A stretch of DNA of 22,290 nt from a virus (taxonomy: Duplodnaviria > Heunggongvirae > Uroviricota > Caudoviricetes). This document shows, one piece after another, positions 1-14,918 of this stretch. The stretch is taken from the IMG/VR virus record IMGVR_UViG_2563366854_000001, positions 1 to 22,290 of that record; one strand, 5' to 3'. Below the pieces are notes generated by a model. The model was not told the origin of the DNA. It saw only the letters and a list, made by a program, of their open reading frames with translations, and did not search any database. Within the stretch, counting starts at the first letter, position 1. Each line of letters begins with the position of its first letter. The translations under genes were made by a program, and so were the position numbers.

Positions 1-1164
1 TTACGCCTTCTTTATATCCTCCATAATTCCACAGTGGGACATATTTGGGACATTATCACCAAAAATGTCGTCTATTTTCCTTGCATGCTCTGTCAAATGA
101 TTAGGCGCAAGGTGAGCATACCTACGAACCATTTCTATGGACTCCCATCCGCCCATTTCCTGAAGCACAGATAATGGGACGCCTGACTGGATCAGCCAGC
201 TTGCCCAGGTGTGTCTGAGGTCATGGAAACGGAAATCTTCAATTCCTGCACGACGACAAGCTGATAGCCATGATGTCTTGCTGTCGATGCGCATCTTCCT
301 GACCGCAGGCGTTGATGTTCCATCTGCTCGCTTAGCCGCCTTGGTATGTACAAACACCCATTTGTGATGCTTGCCTATTTGATCACGCAACACTTTACAG
401 GCGGTATCGTTCAGCGCCACACCAATGGCGCGGTTTGATTTGCTCTCTTCTGGATTCACCCAGGCAACTCGTCGCTGCATGTCGATTTGTTGCCATTCCA
501 GATTTATGATGTTCGACTTTCTCAGACCAGTTGCCAGCGCAAACTTGACGACAGATTTCAGTGGTTCGGGGCACTCATCAATAAGGCGTTTTGCTTCCTC
601 CTTTTCCAGCCATCTGACTCGCTTGTTTCTGACCGCTGGTATCTTGATGACAGGCGCTTTTTCCAGCCACTTCCAGTCGCGTTCTGCAGCACGGAGAATG
701 GCCTTTATCATGGCAAGATGCTTTGCCTTTGTCTGAGTTGATACTGGCTTTGGTTCATAAACAGGCGGTTCTTTACCTTTCCTGATGGCGGCCTGAACTT
801 TCTGTTTCCATATTTCTTTCGTCTTTCTGTTATGCATTCTGCTTACAGCAGAGTAAATCTTTGCCTCCGAGATATCTTTAAGCCTTATACCCTCAAAATG
901 TTCAAGCCAGAACTCAATCCGGCTTTTATCTGAATCGAGAGATTTTTTATCAGCTTTTTCCTCAAGCCATCTTAGGCAGGCCTCTTCAAAAGTGACATCA
1001 GGTAAATCCCCTAGCTTTTCTACTCGCCAGAGTTCTGCTTTTCGCTTGTCGTGCAACTCCTGAGCTTGCCGCTTGTCCTTTGTGCCAAGAGATTCCTTAA
1101 TTCGTTTCCCGCCCGGGAGCGAATACGAGGCATACCATATTTCATTTCTGCGGAAGAGTGACAT
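1..1164 (-). CDS. int: Phage integrase, tyrosine recombinase family
   Basis: 387-aa ORF; C-terminal region carries the tyrosine-recombinase pattern (HDLRHTWAS...LGGW...RRYAH); start ATG at 1162-1164 preceded by AGGAAAG; sits at the prophage end next to an Xis-like gene. Confidence 0.9.
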
Positions 1165-1696: not shown

Positions 1697-2058
1697 TATG
1701 CTCCAGCCTCCGGTGCTTTTGGCATTACTGCCCAGTGAGTGATATTGACGTTTTCAAGGTCCCCGACCTGAAATGTCCACTGCCATTCTCCGGTTTCTTT
1801 TTGTCCCCAGGTGTACCAGAGAGAACGCCAGCCAATCAGCCAGCCTTCTCCATTAGCATCAAATAACAGAACACTTTCATTTGCTGGTGGCAGTTCAGCT
1901 GACACTGGTATTATTTTGTTTTCCAGTGCCGCACATTTAGCTTCAAGCGCGTCGAATTTACGTAACAGGTACTCAGCATTTGTTTCATTCACTTTCAGAT
2001 CTCGCGGTACACATTTCCCGCGAAGAAACCCTTCCATTTCGAAAACATTCATGCGCAT
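1696..2058 (-). CDS. Hypothetical Trp-rich phage protein (YfdS-like by size and position)
   Basis: 120-aa ORF; GGAG 9 nt upstream of ATG at 2058; 10-nt overlap with the upstream HD-domain gene. Confidence 0.6.
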   Translation of the reverse strand: MRMNVFEMEGFLRGKCVPRDLKVNETNAEYLLRKFDALEAKCAALENKIIPVSAELPPANESVLLFDANGEGWLIGWRSLWYTWGQKETGEWQWTFQVGDLENVNITHWAVMPKAPEAGA

Positions 2059-2585
2059 TTGCGTAACTCCGATAAATCGTTAAAACGTTCCATAAACATC
2101 CCGTAGGCATGACCCGGTGCCAGTGGAATCACGTTGAACATCTCTGTTGCCGGGATGCCTTCCAGTACAGGCCAGAAAGAGCCATCATCAAGCCCGAGAT
2201 CGCGGCGTTCGGTTGCCAGCATGATGAGATCGGCATATTTCACGGGTGTACTCATAACTGGGGGTAACCCGTATTCCTCACGGATTACGGCGTCTATTTT
2301 TTCTTCCATCCGTTTATAGTCAGGAAGAAGGCGTTTCAGTGGTGCGGGAATGTCCTGGCAATACGCTTCTGTTGCATCATGCATTAACGCTTCAAAAGCA
2401 AATTCCTGCGGCACCAGCTGGCTGCAAAGAACCGCATGTTGGGCGACGCTGTAGAAGTGCGAAAGATGACCGGCAAAGCGACAGATATTTGAAAGGGAAA
2501 CCGCGATATCGTTAATATCGATGTCGTCTTTATTTATCTTGTCATAATAAAAATGCTTCCCGGAAAAAGTTTTAATAAATGACAT
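2049..2585 (-). CDS. HD-domain phosphohydrolase (YfdR-like 5'-deoxynucleotidase family)
   Basis: Start taken at the internal Met MSFIKTF (GGAGAA-N4-ATG); HD signature in SVAQHAV...LMHDATEAY; size matches prophage YfdR-like proteins. Confidence 0.75.
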   Translation of the reverse strand: MSFIKTFSGKHFYYDKINKDDIDINDIAVSLSNICRFAGHLSHFYSVAQHAVLCSQLVPQEFAFEALMHDATEAYCQDIPAPLKRLLPDYKRMEEKIDAVIREEYGLPPVMSTPVKYADLIMLATERRDLGLDDGSFWPVLEGIPATEMFNVIPLAPGHAYGMFMERFNDLSELRKCA

Positions 2586-2679
2586 TTTGTTCTCCACGTA
2601 TATGCACTGCACCGCGCTGAATTCTGGTAAAAGGAAGCCCTCACCATCCGGTGATTATTGAGTTAATTACGTTTCCATA

Positions 2680-2701
2680 AATGCCCCCGCAGGGGCATTT
2701 G
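2680..2701. terminator. Perfect 9-bp-stem hairpin between the YfdQ-like and HD-domain genes (possible intra-operon attenuator or bidirectional terminator)
   Basis: AAATGCCCC-CGCA-GGGGCATTT; A/T tracts are part of the stem; no separate U-tract. Confidence 0.3.
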
Positions 2702-2712
2702 CAGTAATGAAA

Positions 2713-3537
2713 TCAGGCGGTGAAAGTACCAATAAAGGTTTCTACTTTGCTGTCTTTGAATTTCTCAACAAGCAGATCACGAAATTCGTTAGCCATTTCT
2801 TCCTGCACCGCTTCCAGCTGAATAATGCGCAGAACCAGTACAGGACGATCGCCAGTGATAATGCTGAGGCGTAATTTAAACGGACGTTCTTTCAGACCTT
2901 CAAACGGAACGCATTTAAATTCAAATGCCACTGGCATAATGTCTTTGGTCTTCGCTTCGACAGACTCCATCAGGGAGCGTTTGCCGCTGAAGTCATTATC
3001 TTCAAAATCAGCGGTCTGGTTTGCTTCAATCGTGATTTTACGGACTGCCGCAGCCGCTTTTGTTGCTTGAATGGCGTCACCATTAGCATCAAAGCCCACA
3101 AGGTAGTCGGCCCAGTCTTCGATCCATTCTGCCAGTGACCTCTGGGAGTTACGCTCGCCGTTAACAGACAACAGAGCAGAGAACGGTGCTGTCTTTTTCA
3201 GTTTGAGAGTGGCAGTGTTATCTGCGTGACCTGGCTCATCAATAGTACCCAGGTTAAGCACACTGACGGCACGCATATTATCGGCATCGATAAAGCAGCG
3301 GGTGCCTTCATCTGCAAGATCTTTAGAATAACGGGTAAAATCATCGATGCTGGCAGTGGAAAGTGCACCACGGAAACGGAAGCGATTTAAATTAAATTTT
3401 TCCAGATCATGAATGCGGAAATTCTCAGGCAATGCCACAGCATCGGCACCAATCTTACTGATAATTTCATTAACACCCTGAGCAGAAATAAGGGCATGGA
3501 TTTGATTAATTGCGGTTGCGTCTAAGTTCTGAGACAT
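2713..3537 (-). CDS. Conserved prophage protein, YfdQ-like
   Basis: 274-aa ORF with GAGGA 7 nt upstream of ATG; length and neighbourhood match the yfdQ position of KplE1/CPS-53-type prophages (recognition from memory). Confidence 0.65.
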
Positions 3538-3602
3538 AATAAGTCCTCACTATATAAAGATATTCAGTGATGAGATAAATAATCAGTTTATTACGAACGA
3601 TA

Positions 3603-3965
3603 TTAACGACCTGCTGCGCGGAGTTTTCCGTCAGGTTCACCGGCAAGAGTCAGTAATTGTCCCTGGTCTTCCTGCAGAATAGTCAGGCGACCACCGCGAT
3701 TGACATACATCGGCGTTTCGGTGGTGTCTTCTTCGGAAATTTTCCCGCGGTTAGTTGGGCGAACATATGAGAGTTTGTGTTTGATTTTCACACGGTTCTC
3801 ATCAAACGGTTCGATTTCCAGATTGAGTGAGACCTTCCCTTTGGTTTTCGTGTTCATCACACCGGAAGCGACCTCACTGAGAACTGCGCCGATTTTGGTT
3901 TCAAATACGCCGCCGTCCAGCTCCCCGATAAATGCCTGCACATCAGTACTGCGTTCGCTAGCCAT
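3603..3965 (-). CDS. Hypothetical phage protein (YfdP-like by size and position)
   Basis: Start at internal Met MASERSTD (GAGGAG-N8-ATG at 3963-3965); 120 aa. The longer 182-aa ORF upstream of this Met lies in GC-rich non-coding-looking sequence. Confidence 0.6.
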   Translation of the reverse strand: MASERSTDVQAFIGELDGGVFETKIGAVLSEVASGVMNTKTKGKVSLNLEIEPFDENRVKIKHKLSYVRPTNRGKISEEDTTETPMYVNRGGRLTILQEDQGQLLTLAGEPDGKLRAAGR

Positions 3966-4426
3966 TTTGCTGCTCCTCATCATATCGACCCTGCAAGGTC
4001 GGTTGGTTTCTCCACAAAACAGAGAAGAACACCTGCGGTGGCAGCCGCCCGGATGGATTGGGTTATGAGCCCGTCGTCCGGTGATGCTCTTCTCTGTTTT
4101 GTAAAAAGAGCGGTGCCAGCCGGAAGCAAGTGTACAAACTGGTACCGCCAAAGCAGTGGCTGTTGTGGTGCCGGGTGCCTCCCGGTGCCTGGCGAAGGTT
4201 GCACACCAGGCGGGTGGGTATCCACAGAAGGTCGACTGTCAGCCTCAACCTTAACCCGCGTGCGCTGAGCCGCATTCACCACAACGCTAAGGATTCTCTC
4301 TGGTTGAAAATACTTAGCTGTTATGTGCCTGCTTTTAGCCACATCAGGCGAGGTGGACCTGGTTATTCCCCAACAACAAGGATTCGGTTAATCTTGATAC
4401 CCCCAATAACATGGTGATTATTTAAG
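3966..4426. promoter_or_regulatory. GC-rich ORF-free divergent intergenic region with a long inverted repeat; candidate divergent promoters and/or structured RNA
   Basis: All frames carry overlapping junk-like ORFs; 17-bp inverted repeat (4015-4031 vs 4085-4101, one mismatch) enclosing a 53-nt GC-rich segment; flanked by divergently transcribed genes. Confidence 0.3.
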
Positions 4427-4930
4427 ATGGACAAATTTGATAGAAGTGCACAAAGGCAGTTGTTACAAATACTGTATGATGCTCATCCTTATGAAATTTC
4501 TGATGATGCGTTGCAGTCTGTTCGTGACGCATTTGGAGATGATAATGTCCTAATTTCGAACTTAATTTATCTCGAAGAACATGGCTTGATTAAGAATGCT
4601 CTTGATTATTACTTGGATGGCATAAATATAAATATTCCTGAATTAAGAATTACTAAAGATGGAATTGATTTCATTCGTGATGATGGAGGTCTTAAAGCTA
4701 TTCTTGGGATTATGACAATAAGATTGCATGATGAGACTCTCTGTGAACTTGAACGTATCATCAATAGTTCTACTTCTGCCACGACTGAAGATAAGAAGAA
4801 ATTACTCTCTCAGCTTCGAACGCTTCCTGCCGACGCCATAAAACAGCTGACGATTCGATTACTTGGTCAGGGGCTTGACCATCTGCCGGACGTATTTCAC
4901 GTAATTCAAAAAGCCCTCCATTCTCTGTAA
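4427..4930 (+). CDS. Hypothetical protein, putative N-terminal winged-helix domain (AT-rich accessory gene)
   Basis: 167-aa ORF starting at ATG 4427; AT-rich codon usage unlike flanking genes; motifs LIYLEEHGLIKN and ITKDGIDFI resemble wHTH recognition helix and wing. Confidence 0.6.
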   Translation: MDKFDRSAQRQLLQILYDAHPYEISDDALQSVRDAFGDDNVLISNLIYLEEHGLIKNALDYYLDGININIPELRITKDGIDFIRDDGGLKAILGIMTIRLHDETLCELERIINSSTSATTEDKKKLLSQLRTLPADAIKQLTIRLLGQGLDHLPDVFHVIQKALHSL

Positions 4931-5108
4931 ATTCTGATTCTGGTCGGATTAGACAGAATCGTCCCCATCCGACCTGCTTACTAAGTAGAATCCAGAATTC
5001 GTCTTGTTGGTTGGTGCTGATAAAAAATCCATTAGGATGAACGTAAGCACAGAATATGACCATAGAACCCTCTTTTGTTACGGGGATACTAAGATTGTTA
5101 AAGAGCTA

Positions 5109-5131
5109 AGCGTCCTGTAGGGCGCTTTTTT
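5109..5131 (+). terminator. Rho-independent terminator-like hairpin
   Basis: AGCGTCC-TGTA-GGGCGCT (7-bp stem with one G-U pair) followed by TTTTTT; about 180 nt downstream of the 4427..4930 stop. Confidence 0.5.
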
Positions 5132-5216
5132 GTTGCTAACGAATCATCCGGTCATTCATACGCCACCGGCGGCTACTTCGTGGGCGTCCTGCCTGTCCGT
5201 GATAGCTTACATTATG

Positions 5217-5288
5217 TTGCTACTTAAAGTAGCAAAAATCAACAACAAAAAGTAGATATTTGTTGTTGTCTATGATTTTTCTATAATT
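5217..5288. promoter_or_regulatory. Operator-like palindromes plus a sigma70-like plus-strand promoter
   Basis: Near-perfect palindrome TTGCTACTT-A-AAGTAGCAA (5217-5235), related to the 13-bp motif repeated next to cI/cro; second inverted repeat AACAACAAA-N9-TTTGTTGTT (5241-5267); TTGTTG (5260-5265), 16-nt spacer, TATAAT (5282-5287). Confidence 0.4.
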
Positions 5289-5426
5289 AATTGAAAGTTA
5301 AATGTTTTTGCTGATTTACTATGCTGTAAACTGAAAATATCGCACGAAGTTGGAGTAGGTATTGAGCATAGTGAATTATGAGGAGGGAGTTTTTTATGAG
5401 ATTAATCAGGGAGAAAGAAGAGTAAA

Positions 5427-5446
5427 GCCCGGTTATGCGGCCGGGC
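5427..5446 (-). terminator. Hairpin immediately downstream of the ParA-like gene (candidate terminator)
   Basis: GCCCGG-N8-CCGGGC; on the minus-strand RNA it is followed by UUUACUCUUCUUUCU; begins 8 nt after the ParA-like stop. Confidence 0.4.
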
Positions 5447-5453
5447 ACATGCA

Positions 5454-6530
5454 TTACTTTGTAAGTTCTAGAACTCGTTGAGCCAGCCCTTTAAATTGTT
5501 CGTTAAAGGCGTCTCTGCTTGATTTCATTGTATTTAAGGCATGCCCAAATTGCCCTGAATCGCGAATTTGCTGATCACTGATGGAGAAAACAGGTGTCGC
5601 TAGTTGTTGGCTTATTGCGATTAATGAGTTGAAATCGGAAATATGCGCAAGATCATAGGCTGATAAATCTCCACTGACTGTTGTTTTGTTAATTGCATGT
5701 TGCACTTTATCTCGTGGAATTATGCAGGTAATTTTTTCTAGATTTGGCACTAAGATCGAATCAACAGCATCACGGATAGCTGCCATCCATTTTTCGAAAG
5801 ATTTTACAGGTGCTCCTTTACGCGGCCTGTATCTCTGCTGAATCATACCTAGAAACTGCGGTGCATTTTTAATTGATTGTGAAGAGTTACCATCATTATT
5901 TTCTTTAAATAATGCTAATTCTTTGTGCCAGCGAGGTATATTTTTTGAGAGAGAGCGAATTGCTTGCCAGCAAAAAAAGTCTGGAGCTACAGGTACGATA
6001 AAATAGTCACTTGACATGAGAACTACTTCATTTAAACCTCCAACATTAGGGCTGAGATCATAAAGAATGTAATCAATATTATTCTTCATGGCGATTAGCT
6101 GTAATATTTTTGGCAGGTTCCCTGGTATATTTCTTGTAGCAGGAATACCAGCAGCAATTTTTAGAGAAACACTTATCTGTGAATCTAAGTCCGAAACATC
6201 TAAATGTCCGGGAAGAAGCAGAAGGTTTTCATGCAGTGTAGGGTGTAATTTTCCCGTTTCTTTTTCAAGGTATGCTTCAGGTTGTCCGCCATTAATCAAA
6301 TATTCTACAATAGGTCCAAGAGTTAAGTTATCTCTGCTAGAATAAAAAGAATCTAAACCCTCATCAATCTTTTCATAGCCAAGAACCATTCCTGTTAGAT
6401 TACATTGCGAATCAAGGTCAACCATCAATACTTTCTTGCCTTCATCCGCAAGTGCCCATCCAAGATTGAAGGTTGTTGTGGTTTTACTTACCCCACCTTT
6501 ATGATTAAAAAAACAAATTGATTTTGTCAT
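5454..6530 (-). CDS. ParA/MinD-family P-loop ATPase with long C-terminal extension (orphan; no ParB partner seen)
   Basis: 358-aa ORF; deviant Walker A NHKGGVSKTTT near the N-terminus, VLMVDLDSQCNLT motif, Walker-B-like ILYDLSPNVGG; AGGA upstream of the ATG; AT-rich; same strand as and directly downstream of the cI-like repressor. Confidence 0.8.
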   Translation of the reverse strand: MTKSICFFNHKGGVSKTTTTFNLGWALADEGKKVLMVDLDSQCNLTGMVLGYEKIDEGLDSFYSSRDNLTLGPIVEYLINGGQPEAYLEKETGKLHPTLHENLLLLPGHLDVSDLDSQISVSLKIAAGIPATRNIPGNLPKILQLIAMKNNIDYILYDLSPNVGGLNEVVLMSSDYFIVPVAPDFFCWQAIRSLSKNIPRWHKELALFKENNDGNSSQSIKNAPQFLGMIQQRYRPRKGAPVKSFEKWMAAIRDAVDSILVPNLEKITCIIPRDKVQHAINKTTVSGDLSAYDLAHISDFNSLIAISQQLATPVFSISDQQIRDSGQFGHALNTMKSSRDAFNEQFKGLAQRVLELTK

Positions 6531-6700
6531 ATTTCTCTATCCTTTCGACCCCCAGCATATTGTAATTTACGCTGGGTGATTATTTTATATTGTTAATGAT
6601 AATGTTTAATAAAAATAAGAGAGTAAAACAACTATTAGTAATAGCACTTGCTTGATAAATATTATTTTTTCACCTTTAGTTCTATAGTCTAAACGAAGAA

Positions 6701-7462
6701 CTAAAGCCGGTTGTATTTAATTGATTCGTGTATCAATGCTTTGCCCATAACATAAAGTTGATCTTGGGACTTCTCATCAATGTACCATTTCTCATAGGCT
6801 GGATTATCCGAAAGAACGGCGAGTTTGTTGCCTTGCATTTGTAGACGTTTAACGTGGAACGTCTTACCATAAACGAAAGAGTAAACACCATCAGTTTGGA
6901 AGTTGCGAACAGAAATGTCGACAAACAGTCGATCTCCGGAAACTAGAGTAGGGGACATGCTGTCGCCATTTACAGTCATAACTTTAATATCATCTTGAGA
7001 ACGATTACCGAAAAGAGAACGGGCATGCTCTGTTGTGAACTCAATGGCGTAGAGCACATCAACATAGTCTGAAAGCATATAGGTTCCAGGTCCTGCGCTA
7101 ACGCTAAGATCCAAAACTTCTATCCTGTATACATCGGGTTTTGTTGGATTGGGGATGCTTGCCATTTCCTTACATCCTTCTCTCTCGCCAACACCATATT
7201 CTAAATATGAAGCTGATACCCCCAGAGCCAATGCAAGTTTATTCATGACAGAGGCACGAGGCTTCGCAGCGCCGATTGTGTATCGCCGCGCCATTTCATA
7301 TGTAACGCCCACAAGACTTTTGAGTTGGGTGACAGAAATTCCCTTGTTTGTCATTAGCTCGTTTAGTCTCTTGGCGAAATCTGGATACTTCTGTTCTTCT
7401 ACCATAGGTAGAAGGTTACTCGCATCACATACGCTAGTCATTTCTATTTTAAGTAGTTGCAT
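6701..7462 (-). CDS. cI-like prophage repressor (XRE-type HTH plus S24 LexA-like peptidase domain)
   Basis: HTH LMTNKGISVTQLKSLVGVTYEMARRY; Ala-Gly cleavage-site-like SAGPG; S24 motifs VNGDSMSPTL and KRL. Start is ambiguous (7462, 7441 or 7405) with no strong SD, so it may be leaderless. Confidence 0.85.
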   Translation of the reverse strand: MQLLKIEMTSVCDASNLLPMVEEQKYPDFAKRLNELMTNKGISVTQLKSLVGVTYEMARRYTIGAAKPRASVMNKLALALGVSASYLEYGVGEREGCKEMASIPNPTKPDVYRIEVLDLSVSAGPGTYMLSDYVDVLYAIEFTTEHARSLFGNRSQDDIKVMTVNGDSMSPTLVSGDRLFVDISVRNFQTDGVYSFVYGKTFHVKRLQMQGNKLAVLSDNPAYEKWYIDEKSQDQLYVMGKALIHESIKYNRL

Positions 7463-7503
7463 TCTGCTATTTTAAGTAGCATCATCCCTCTGAATTTCAG
7501 AGG
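7444..7503. promoter_or_regulatory. Immunity-region operators between cI and cro
   Basis: Two identical 13-bp copies CTATTTTAAGTAG (7444-7456 and 7467-7479, 23 bp centre to centre) plus palindrome CCTCTGAA-T-TTCAGAGG (7487-7503) overlapping the cro SD. Confidence 0.55.
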
Positions 7504-7511
7504 AGAAAGGT

Positions 7512-7775
7512 ATGTCATCTCAAAACTACACAGAGAAAGCAGTAAAAGCTGCGGGAAAATCTTTATCTGAAGTAGCCCGTCACTTTGGTTTTAAGTCCAC
7601 TCAATCCGTCGCTAATTGGGTAATTAACAATCAAGTCCCGTCAGAACGGGTTTTACAACTTTGTGAGTTGGGAAACTGGTCCGTGACCCCTCATGAACTG
7701 CGTCCTGATATTTACCCCAATCCAAATGATGGATTACCTGAGTGCTATTCAAAAGTTAGCGGTTCAGCTGCGTAA
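7512..7775 (+). CDS. Cro/YdaS-like HTH regulator
   Basis: 87-aa ORF with GGAGAAAGG upstream; divergent from cI across the operators; C-terminal ELRPDIY resembles the YdaS family (memory-based). Confidence 0.7.
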   Translation: MSSQNYTEKAVKAAGKSLSEVARHFGFKSTQSVANWVINNQVPSERVLQLCELGNWSVTPHELRPDIYPNPNDGLPECYSKVSGSAA

Positions 7776-12675: not shown

Positions 12676-13059
12676 ATGCGTGATATTCAGATGGTTCTTG
12701 AACGTTGGGGAGCGTGGGCGGCTAATAATCATGAAGATGTGGCCTGGTCGTCCATTGCCGCCGGTTTTAAGGGATTAATTCCTTCAAAAGTAAAATCTCG
12801 CCCGCATTGTTGTGACGATGACGCGATGATCATTTGCGGGTGCATGGCCCGTCTGAAAAAGAACAACAGCGATTTACACGATTTATTAGTAGATTATTAT
12901 GTATGTGGTATGACATTCATGTCACTGGCAAGTAAGCATTGCTGCTCGGATGGTTATATCGGGAAAAGGTTACAGAAGGCTGAGGGCATAATTGAAGGGA
13001 TGTTAATGGCATTAGATATCCGGTTAGATATGGATATCGTTGCTAATAATTCTAATTGA
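12676..13059 (+). CDS. Q: Late-gene antiterminator Q
   Basis: Start at [22 protein letters not shown] (GGAGA-N7-ATG); Q-family-like sequence with Cys-rich zinc-binding region; sits upstream of a hairpin terminator and the lysis cassette. Confidence 0.8.
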
Positions 13060-13197
13060 TATGCAATTGTTTACTAAAAGTTATTAAAAATGGGGCGTGG
13101 AAACGCCCCCAAAATAAAGGGTAATATATAACAGAAGGTTTATATAGTAAGAAGCAAGGTAGTGCTTCTAAAGGAAGTGGCTTGAGGGCTCCACTTA

Positions 13198-13245
13198 TAT
13201 GTTGCGGAGGCAAAGCCTCCCGCAACATATCTTTTTCGTAAGTCA
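13198..13245 (+). terminator. Strong rho-independent terminator (tR'-like) downstream of Q
   Basis: ATATGTTGCGGAGGC-AAA-GCCTCCCGCAACATAT followed by CTTTTTCG. A second hairpin GGGGCGT-GGAA-ACGCCCC at 13092-13109 has a U-tract on the opposite strand and may terminate the porin transcript. Confidence 0.6.
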
Positions 13246-13247
13246 GA

Positions 13248-14330
13248 TTAGAACTGATAAACCAGACCTACAGCGACGATGTCGTCGGTATCAATACCAG
13301 CTGTTTTGGTAAACTTACTATCGTCAATTAAGTTGATTTTGTAATCAACAAAAGTAGACATGTTTTTATTAAAGTAGTAAGTAGCACCGACATCGACATA
13401 CTTGACTAAGTCTCGGTCACCATGAACACCAAGGTCTTTACCTTTTGACTGAAGGTAAGCAACAGATGGGCGCAGACCGAAGTCAAACTGATATTGTGCT
13501 ACTGCTTCAAAGTTTTGTGCTTTGTTTGCAATATGGTTATTACCAAAAACGGTCATATTCTGAGTTTCAGAATATGTGGTAGCCAGATAGATATTGTTCG
13601 CATCATATTTCAGGCCTGCAGCCCATACTTCCGCATTTTTGCCGGAGGCATTGAATTTGCTCTTACCATAGGCGACCTGACCGTCAGTGCGATCTGATTT
13701 AGCATAGGTTGCACCCACGCCGAATCCTTCATACTCATAAGTAGTGGAGAAACCGAAACCATCACCATTGGCTTCAGTTACGTCAGTGCGGTCATTTTTA
13801 CCCTGATACTGAGCAGCAAAGTTCAGGCCATCGACCAGACCAAAGAAGTCGTTGTTACGATAAGTTGCAACACCAGTAGTGCGACCAGTCATGAACACAT
13901 CTGTTTGGGTCCAGGTATCACCACCGAATTCTGGCAGAACGTCAGTCCACGCACCGATGTCGTATGCTACACCGTAGTTACGGCCGTAATCGATGGAGCC
14001 GTAATCACCAAATTTCAGGCCTGCAAATGCAAGACGGGTTTTGTCTTTGGAAGAACCTTGAGATTCAGCACGGTTGCCTTTGAATTCATATTCCCACTGA
14101 CCGAAACCAGTCAGTTGATCGTTGATTTGGGTTTCACCTTTGAAGCCAAGACGGGCATAAGTAGTATCACCATCATCTGCATCATTAGAGGAGAAGTAGT
14201 GCTTGGCATTAACTTTCCCGTATAGATCCAGCTTGTTACTGTCTTTATTATAAATTTCAGCTGCCTGAGCAGACATCGCCATCAGTACTGATGCAGCTAC
14301 AGCAGAAATTGCCACTGTTAATTTTTTCAT
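13248..14330 (-). CDS. nmpC: Outer-membrane general porin, OmpC/NmpC family (lysogenic-conversion moron)
   Basis: Start at internal Met [23 protein letters not shown] (signal peptide); porin hallmarks AEIYNKD...LDLYGKV and C-terminal GLVYQF; lies between Q and the holin, as nmpC does in DLP12-type prophages. Confidence 0.85.
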
Positions 14331-14756
14331 TGTACGCCCTTTTTTTGAACTATTATTAAAAAATGATGTCACTGCGCGATAAATATTCATCTAATCAATG
14401 TGATTATTTCAAGATGTAAGTTTTAGTTTCTCATTTAATTTGTGAAGTAGATCTCTATTTTTATCTGAACCTTTTCTATCTAATCCTATTCATGGCTCTT
14501 GTCTGAACAAAAATAAATCTATTAGCTAATTTATATTAATGGCACTTATTTATAAGTGCTCTATAATTCTTTAGCTTAATTTAAACAAACTAAAAATAAC
14601 ATCGGAAATTATTAACTGATTATTTGTTGAAGTTTTCTTATGTATTTGTGGTGGTGTTTTGAACACTCGGTGGCATTCTCACAAATATCATTTAGTAGTT
14701 TACGTACGTAAAAAATTGGTTATGCTGTTAAGAGTGGTTACTTCGTCACACAGCTT

Positions 14757-14790
14757 AAACCCGCCGTCGAGCGGGTTTTTCCATTTTTTG
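14757..14790 (+). terminator. Hairpin with U-tract upstream of the lysis cassette
   Basis: AAACCCGC-CGTCGA-GCGGGTTTTT followed by CCATTTTTT. Confidence 0.4.
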
Positions 14791-14918
14791 AGTCTCGATA
14801 TTAGCTGATAACCCAATACCTGAGTTATTCACTGACTCCGAATCTGTTACGTTTCTGCCTTTATTGCGATACGTAATATCCCCTTAATTTACACCCGCTT
14901 TGTCTGCGAGGTGGGGTT

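Follow-up and report, generated by a model that had tools for sequence, protein, structure and literature searches.

The DNA considered here (the window) is a stretch of 22,290 nucleotides from a Caudoviricetes virus, IMG/VR record IMGVR_UViG_2563366854_000001, and represents a lambdoid prophage of the SfV/CPS-53 type. Our interest is in positions 4427-6700, next to the gene for the cI-like repressor, where a gene for a solo ATPase of the ParA/MinD superfamily (ParA in what follows) faces a convergent gene for a 167-residue protein (ORF167). An earlier note on the same DNA had described a long orphan ParA/MinD-like ATPase and a putative winged helix-turn-helix gene within one accessory island, and both open reading frames (ORFs) proved to be real genes. 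They are independent of one another, however, occupying two distinct swap slots separated by the left operator (OL) of the repressor, and only ParA is discussed below as a candidate anti-phage protein.

The immunity region and its two accessory slots

The features of the region and its surroundings are these:

1-1164, minus strand: integrase
up to about 3965, minus strand: early-left genes yfdT/R/Q/P
4394-4421, plus strand: promoter-like site for ORF167, TTGATA-16-GATTAT (9 of 12 matches in a consensus scan; inferred)
4427-4930, plus strand: ORF167, 167 amino acids, phrog_3983, GC 0.379, GC at third codon positions (GC3) 0.30, convergent with ParA
5108-5135, plus strand: intrinsic terminator of ORF167, an 8-bp stem AAGCGTCC/GGGCGCTT followed by TTTTTTGTT
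5136-5200, minus strand: conserved backbone element of 65 nt, unannotated, with a 7-codon mini-ORF at 5159-5136
5214-5259: OL, with a 15-bp perfect palindrome GCTACTTAAAGTAGC at 5219-5233 and a weaker half-site near 5243-5255
5446-5427, minus strand: GC-rich hairpin with a weak T tail, 8 nt past the ParA stop
5454-6530, minus strand: ParA, solo ParA/MinD-superfamily ATPase of 358 amino acids, directly downstream of the cI-like repressor
6531-6700, minus strand: spacer between cI and ParA, 170 nt, GC 0.27, with a promoter-like site at 6608-6579
6701-7462, minus strand: cI-like repressor, HTH_3 and Peptidase_S24 domains
7440-7485: right operator (OR), two identical operators CTATTTTAAGTAG at 7444-7456 and 7467-7479, spaced by 23 bp
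7512-7775, plus strand: cro-like YdaS protein

The window has just three copies of the motif CTAYTTWAAGTAG, at 5220-5232, 7444-7456 and 7467-7479. They give six strand-hits where 0.95 would be expected, and none of 100 shuffled sequences reached six. Because 5214-5259 is an inverted copy of 7440-7485 (78%), these two sites are the left and right operators of the cI-like repressor, enclosing cI and ParA only; the 13-bp operator core of OL, CTACTTAAAGTAG, lies at 5220-5232, and OR sits between cI and the cro-like gene. A motif search of the window gave no operator copy at the left edge of ORF167, which lies outside the OL-OR bracket. From symmetry with OR, a leftward promoter (PL) with the form TTGATT-17-CAACAT is expected to overlap OL; the promoter scan did not return it. 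That scan returned 8 sites where 9.8 are expected by chance in the AT-rich region, and since this does not exceed chance, every promoter named in this text is to be taken as inferred.

ParA thus shares its strand with cI and lies within the immunity region, which bears out the rexA-rexB-equivalent position that the earlier note had assigned to it. The hairpins and the operator-like palindromes that it had pointed out were recovered as well; it had the palindromes bounding the whole of 4427-6700, and they bracket cI and ParA instead. No terminator was detected in the spacer between the two genes (6531-6700), and the hairpin at 5446-5427 is the likely end of a cI-ParA transcript. A 55-residue ORF on the minus strand (5287-5454) begins with an ATG that shares bases with the stop codon of ParA (TAATG) and reads through this hairpin into AT-rich DNA; on inspection it shows no Rx4-6H (HEPN) motif. 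The repressor ORF itself has three possible starts (7462, 7441 and 7405), the RefSeq start being the last of these (234 amino acids, WP_001535858.1). The start at 7462 falls within OR, and a promoter-like site at 7475-7446 would put the start of the transcript near the ATG at 7441, hinting that the cI mRNA is leaderless as in lambda.

The impression of an AT-rich block with its own codon style was well founded. GC is 0.376 in 4427-6700 against 0.481 in the window as a whole, this being the lowest-GC stretch of 2,274 nt in the window (minimum at 4451), and GC3 is 0.30 for ORF167 and 0.28 for ParA, compared with 0.40-0.55 for the neighbouring genes. Both genes are foreign in composition. Lying side by side and alike in their low GC content, they looked like a two-gene system, but their distribution across genomes marks them as independent morons, in two slots split by OL. 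Among 5,426 complete E. coli genomes, the set behind all of our prevalence counts, 109 carry ParA, 77 carry ORF167 and 60 carry both; ORF167 is missing from 49 of the 109 ParA genomes, and ParA from 17 of the 77 with ORF167. PMV-1, CFS3273 and EC93 have ParA together with an unrelated plus-strand ORF of 171-173 amino acids in the left slot (the 171-residue ORF of PMV-1 was considered as an ORF167 relative and is unrelated), MS6198 and 15.TR.026 have ORF167 beside a different repressor and no ParA, and in other relatives the left slot holds a ClpX-type zinc-finger gene, a 91-residue gene, a 170-residue gene or SfV orf33, with nothing after the repressor.

Other genera tell the same story. One ORF167 homologue lies in a P2/186-like prophage (Salmonella) and another beside terminase genes (Serratia), while in Proteus sp. 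G2658 (1786-3745 of the examined sequence) a third is convergent with a BstA_C-domain gene directly after an S24 repressor, the two-slot layout of the window with a known defence gene replacing ParA. No relative of ORF167 was found near any of about 63 ParA homologue loci. On the co-occurrence counts and these contexts, then, the idea of one island forming a single gene-combination system has to be given up.

ORF167 has the layout of a classic moron. It points towards OL, antisense to early-left transcription, and its terminator, a strong one with its hairpin at 5108-5127, is kept in PMV-1 and MS6198, being common to prophages with a different plus-strand ORF in the slot. The promoter-like site ends 6 nt before the ATG, so that the mRNA would be leaderless or nearly so. 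The protein has a putative N-terminal winged helix, which may be MarR-like (a three-helix bundle with a beta-hairpin wing), and a helical C-terminal half, and no match was found in Pfam, NCBIfam or PADLOC. A 97-residue ORF on the other strand (4770-5063, minus), with a good Shine-Dalgarno sequence (AGAGGG) 5 nt before its ATG at 5063, runs antisense into the 3' end of ORF167. SfV orf33 occupies the same place, and the 97-residue ORF was considered as a remnant of it; the two are not related, and the ORF may be spurious or may be the beginning of a gene that was cut short when the ORF167 module inserted.

The 65-nt element at 5136-5200 belongs to the prophage rather than to its cargo. Prophages with three different repressors carry it without change, and it occurs, never annotated, in 1,310 of the 5,426 E. 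coli genomes. Its mini-ORF reads MNDRMIR (then stop) in the window and stays open in SfV as MKSRMIR (then stop) despite two amino-acid changes. The location just downstream of the presumed PL suggests that the element is the 5' leader of the early-left transcript, with a leader peptide, a nut-like site or a small RNA as candidate roles; its predicted fold is no better than that of shuffled sequence (z -0.18). The earlier note had seen a promoter, mini-ORF and hairpin unit between the two genes; hairpins and a mini-ORF are there, but the unit is for the most part prophage backbone, as the genome count indicates. An Rfam scan gave nothing in the 4427-6700 island. Outside the island, the Salmonella small RNA STnc100 gives a sub-threshold Rfam match (35.6 bits, gathering score 47, E 2.6e-5) at 4164-4283 on the minus strand, which is that of the early-left genes, within the conserved DNA that separates ORF167 from yfdP.

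The region matches at 100% prophages in many E. coli chromosomes, where they are integrated beside a tRNA-Arg gene downstream of fimZ. To the right of the cro-like gene come a cII-like protein and then replication genes. A second AT-rich patch, at about 13250-14330 on the minus strand (GC down to 0.30, with dips at 12800-13400 and 14200-14800), is where the annotation of an identical prophage places an OmpC/NmpC-like porin gene, downstream of the gene for the Q antiterminator; it is a classic moron, unrelated to the 4427-6700 block.

A distinct and widespread subfamily of ParA-like ATPases

ParA has the ParA/MinD fold, with Pfam domain scores above the gathering score, and its ATPase motifs are intact. 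The deviant Walker A motif NHKGGVSKTT, with the signature lysine, is found at residues 9-18 (pattern xKGGxxK[ST]), and K11, G12, G13, K16, T17, D38, D40 and D158, which cover Walker A, the A' DxD motif and Walker B, are invariant in 40 homologues. The protein belongs to a distinct subfamily of about 357 residues marked by the invariant motifs SLKIAxGIPATRNIPGNLP, QQRYRPR and DFNSLIAISQ, the first of these being a conserved loop of low confidence in the structural model. Species representatives that carry a member number at least 554 and come from many phyla, and identity between its members from Gamma-, Beta- and Deltaproteobacteria is 60-65%. The only solved structure that aligns at full length is that of DIP2308 (PDB 3pg5), itself uncharacterised.

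Checking both proteins against PADLOC-DB v2 matched no known system. ORF167 had no hit of any kind, and the sole hit of ParA was to PDC-M28B, a candidate family, at 33.5 bits over residues 3-40, which is the P-loop. A literature search on the subfamily, on WP_000167381, WP_000357060 and WP_001535858, and on ParA-like defence found only two relevant papers, the report of GiPD474 and a 2013 survey of HEPN proteins, to which we return below. In E. coli strain 550 (NZ_CP058223.1, 4724768-4728531), an IS3-family element interrupts the coding sequence of ParA about 26 nt from its 5' end, a natural ParA knockout in a prophage that is otherwise identical.

Members of the subfamily recur on the same strand downstream of repressors that are not homologous to one another, directly after them in most cases, and also turn up in other mobile settings:

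Pseudomonas prophage: relative after an S24 repressor
Salmonella prophage: relative with 73% identity, after a 155-residue CI_repr-type (PF07022) repressor
Klebsiella prophage: relative after an S24 repressor
Acinetobacter prophage: relative after an Arc-like repressor
P22-like phages ST160/SE1: relative with 60% identity, after c2 and a DUF3024 gene and before the N-like gene 24
Pf filamentous prophage: 31%-identical relative downstream of the repressor
M. gigas: relative in a P4-like island beside HicAB, DarTG and a restriction-modification system
Serratia: relative adjoining a holin gene, the Q antiterminator gene being two genes off on its opposite flank

The DUF3024 gene that separates c2 from the ParA homologue (3021-3362 of the examined ST160 sequence) may be a second item of cargo or a lineage-specific partner. 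Within two genes on either side of 22 close homologues (species representatives) we found S24 repressors and, at E values of 1e-5 or lower, PADLOC matches to mad8 (three), mad3 (two), AriA (two), NsnB (two), MzaA, AbiLi, RmrA and DRT reverse transcriptases, components that belong to the systems MADS, PARIS/OLD-type ATPases, Menshen, Mza, AbiL, RmrA and DRT; further neighbours are ordinary housekeeping genes. Close homologues (at least 49% identity) have no conserved partner gene.

The situation is different for more distant relatives. Of 63 loci with a callable gene, mostly from members with 38-45% identity, 12 have a HEPN gene of about 200 residues directly downstream, and three further loci have another RNxxxH partner. 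The ParA and HEPN ORFs overlap, by 17 nt in most cases, and the one partner that was scanned fully is a HEPN_RiboL-PSP protein (Pfam 1.9e-10). One HEPN-linked relative comes from a metagenome-assembled genome of the Enterobacterales, and another belongs to a pair in the Dehalococcoidia.

The earlier note suggested comparing the locus across related prophages for cargo swapping, and for ParA the pattern in E. coli is not one of swapping. The slot downstream of cI is usually empty within this prophage lineage, and the six E. coli ParA loci that were inspected all share one repressor allele, WP_001535858.1; ParA therefore behaves as part of one immunity cassette and not as freely swapped cargo.

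Possible functions of the ParA-like protein

ParA-type ATPases are normally thought of as DNA-positioning machines. We nevertheless lean, with moderate confidence, towards ParA being a lysogen-expressed single-protein anti-phage ATPase, one that blocks superinfection, on account of its placement, its mobility, its neighbours, its HEPN-linked relatives and its analogy with GiPD474, a solo ParA-like defence protein. The block itself is a pair of unrelated accessory genes in an SfV/CPS-53-like lambdoid prophage. ParA, as part of the immunity cassette OL-ParA-cI-OR, would be expressed in the lysogen from a transcript that either continues through from the repressor promoter or begins in the AT-rich DNA upstream of ParA; with ATP bound, the protein would pair up as a ParA-type sandwich dimer, the dimer would bind DNA or a phage-made partner, and a step after injection of the incoming phage DNA would be blocked. 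In relatives from other phyla, the ATPase may act as a sensor or switch for the adjacent HEPN RNase effector. ORF167, in its different swap slot and with its own promoter-like site and terminator, is a separate moron encoding a putative winged-helix protein. The basis for the steps proposed for ParA is the known behaviour of ParA-type proteins and the intact ATPase motifs.

Several observations weigh against an anti-phage role. Conservation of the order seen between Gamma-, Beta- and Deltaproteobacteria (60-65%) is unusual for an immune gene, and many members of the subfamily are found among housekeeping genes, with HSP70, DnaJ and EF-G as neighbours. ParA has no recognisable effector domain and nothing in PADLOC beyond the 38-residue P-loop match. 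The slot it occupies is usually empty in the E. coli lineage, and the link to GiPD474 is one of fold, size and slot, not of close homology.

A broader version of the anti-phage reading, which we put forward only tentatively, is that the whole subfamily of about 357 residues is a pan-bacterial immune ATPase, whose ATP/DNA switch itself senses or blocks invading DNA without an enzymatic effector. Its members would act solo in proteobacterial prophage immunity regions and be coupled to HEPN proteins elsewhere, and the strong conservation would reflect an invariant target in the host or in phage replication. If this were true, the subfamily would be an entry to a mechanistically new class of defence, with GiPD474 as an independent second example.

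Other functions can be imagined for a DNA-binding ATP switch lying inside an immunity region. ParA might modulate the choice between lysis and lysogeny or the maintenance of the prophage, acting on its own DNA or switch, or by positioning or silencing the prophage. The fold and the position both fit such a role, as does the linkage to one repressor allele in six of six E. coli loci, and there is a precedent in RexA, which is reported to bias the lambda switch (PMC11077077). On the other hand, the subfamily follows unrelated repressors (S24, CI_repr, Arc-like) with different operators and also occurs outside immunity regions, in the Serratia lysis region, the P4-like island and housekeeping contexts; for these reasons a repressor-specific job is disfavoured, and we consider the modulator role unlikely. 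The HEPN-linked relatives raise another thought, that ParA is an orphan antitoxin with an anti-defence role, disarming ParA-HEPN systems of the host. The ParA/Soj partner has been postulated as the antitoxin of the HEPN toxin (PMC3710099), and such dyads exist, one of them in the Enterobacterales. Placement with the repressor, however, would mean expression in the lysogen and not at the start of the lytic cycle, close homologues are far more often solo than in dyads, and the analogous solo GiPD474 gives defence and not counter-defence, all of which make this role improbable.

Another conceivable function is partition or segregation, with the phage genome or some plasmid-like state as its object, or else disturbance of partition in competitors (a plasmid or plasmid-prophage). 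An ordinary partition cassette, in which ParA is accompanied by an adjacent ParB gene and parS sites, was named by the earlier note as a finding that would refute its proposal; it was looked for and is not there. The neighbours of ParA are cI upstream and the hairpin and OL downstream, with no gene for a ParB- or ParG-like, centromere-binding adaptor beside it, and ORF167 is not a fixed partner. Nor were centromere-like (parS) repeats found: Tandem Repeats Finder (TRF) gives one 19-nt chance array inside ORF167, and the only significant repeats in the region are the repressor operators. Of the curated models, the NCBIfam model ParA_partition reaches 55.8 bits against a cutoff of 180, over residues 5-43 only, and RepA, SopA, MinD and BcsQ match the P-loop only, with scores far below cutoff. 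The prophage, moreover, is integrated next to the tRNA-Arg gene and has an integrase. We rejected the partition cassette on these grounds, and a partition role in any form seems to us quite improbable. Least credible is the two-gene system in which the winged-helix protein would serve as adaptor or regulator of the ATPase. It is largely refuted by the co-occurrence data, by the absence of an ORF167 relative beside about 63 ParA homologues, by the other settings of ORF167 homologues (next to BstA, within a P2/186-like prophage, next to terminase genes), and by the operators that separate the two genes.

If a solo ParA does protect lysogens, ParA-type ATPases would be a recurrent immune module. 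The subfamily lends itself to a comparison of its solo members with those coupled to HEPN proteins, from which it might be learned how infection is sensed by the ATPase, and it has the advantages of being far more widespread than GiPD474 and of having a solved relative (PDB 3pg5). There could also be a practical side, in that a gene carried by 109 of 5,426 E. coli genomes and by P22-like Salmonella phages could affect host range in phage therapy.

Comparison with known systems

Type I partition ParA proteins (Soj, SopA, ParF, McdA) share their fold and ATPase motifs with the window protein, which is about 100 residues longer, has subfamily-specific inserts and falls below every curated equivalog cutoff. 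In arrangement, the OL-ParA-cI-OR order of the window matches lambda OL-rexB-rexA-cI-OR, in place and in orientation relative to cI. ParA has no sequence relationship or PADLOC match to rexA-rexB, BstA or remAIN, however, and is one cytoplasmic ATPase where rexA-rexB combines a sensor with a membrane protein. The proposal that the place after the repressor is a hotspot for defence genes has held up well, both in the BstA_C gene of Proteus and in GiPD474 and remAIN of Gifsy-1 (PMC12724215).

GiPD474 is the closest known precedent. It is a single gene for a ParA/MinD/Soj-like protein of 361 amino acids after the Gifsy-1 repressor of S. Typhimurium 4/74, and its defence was demonstrated by deletion and complementation, with T4 and Alf5 each restricted by about 5 logs (Bosma, Noireaux & Bowden 2025, PMC12724215). 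It also restricts Felix O1, but not T7, SP6 or S16, and works in E. coli K-12; its mechanism is given as unknown (PMC12724215). We recovered its sequence by locating the primers of that paper in viral contigs; the primers did not match the Salmonella homologue loci of the window protein. Both proteins are the products of single genes of about 360 codons, with an AAA_31 core, a deviant Walker A motif and an extra C-terminal part, and both genes directly follow a prophage repressor whose opposite flank carries cro- and cII-like genes. The two are colinear over residues 8-342 (hhalign probability 98.3%) at 22% identity, too low for them to be the same protein. The subfamily profile hardly separates GiPD474 (52 bits) from a generic Soj (55 bits), and GiPD474 has none of the motifs SLKIAxGIPATRNIPGNLP, QQRYRPR and DFNSLIAISQ; the family criterion of PMC12724215 (at least 70% identity and at least 70% coverage) likewise excludes the window protein. 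The analogy between the two therefore lies in fold, size and slot, and their homology does not go beyond the superfamily. A PF07022 CI-type repressor precedes both GiPD474 and the 73%-identical Salmonella relative of the window protein, and from this shared repressor type it follows that two different ParA-like genes alternate in one slot. The earlier note had recognised no described system in this gene combination. That needs qualifying, since November 2025 saw the publication of a ParA-like defence, likewise a single gene, from this slot, but it stands insofar as that protein is a different one.

The remaining comparison is with the ParA/Soj-HEPN dyad, which has been predicted to be a toxin-antitoxin or conflict module (Anantharaman et al. 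2013, PMC3710099). Its ATPases fall in the same subfamily of about 345-360 residues, with 38-45% full-length identity to the window protein. The window, in contrast, has no HEPN gene: the ParA stop codon is followed by the hairpin, 190 nt of AT-rich DNA and OL, and no adjacent co-oriented HEPN (Rx4-6H) ORF was found downstream of 5454. The subfamily is distinct from GiPD474 and much more widespread, and its link to the HEPN dyad is, to our knowledge, apparently new for prophage immunity regions.

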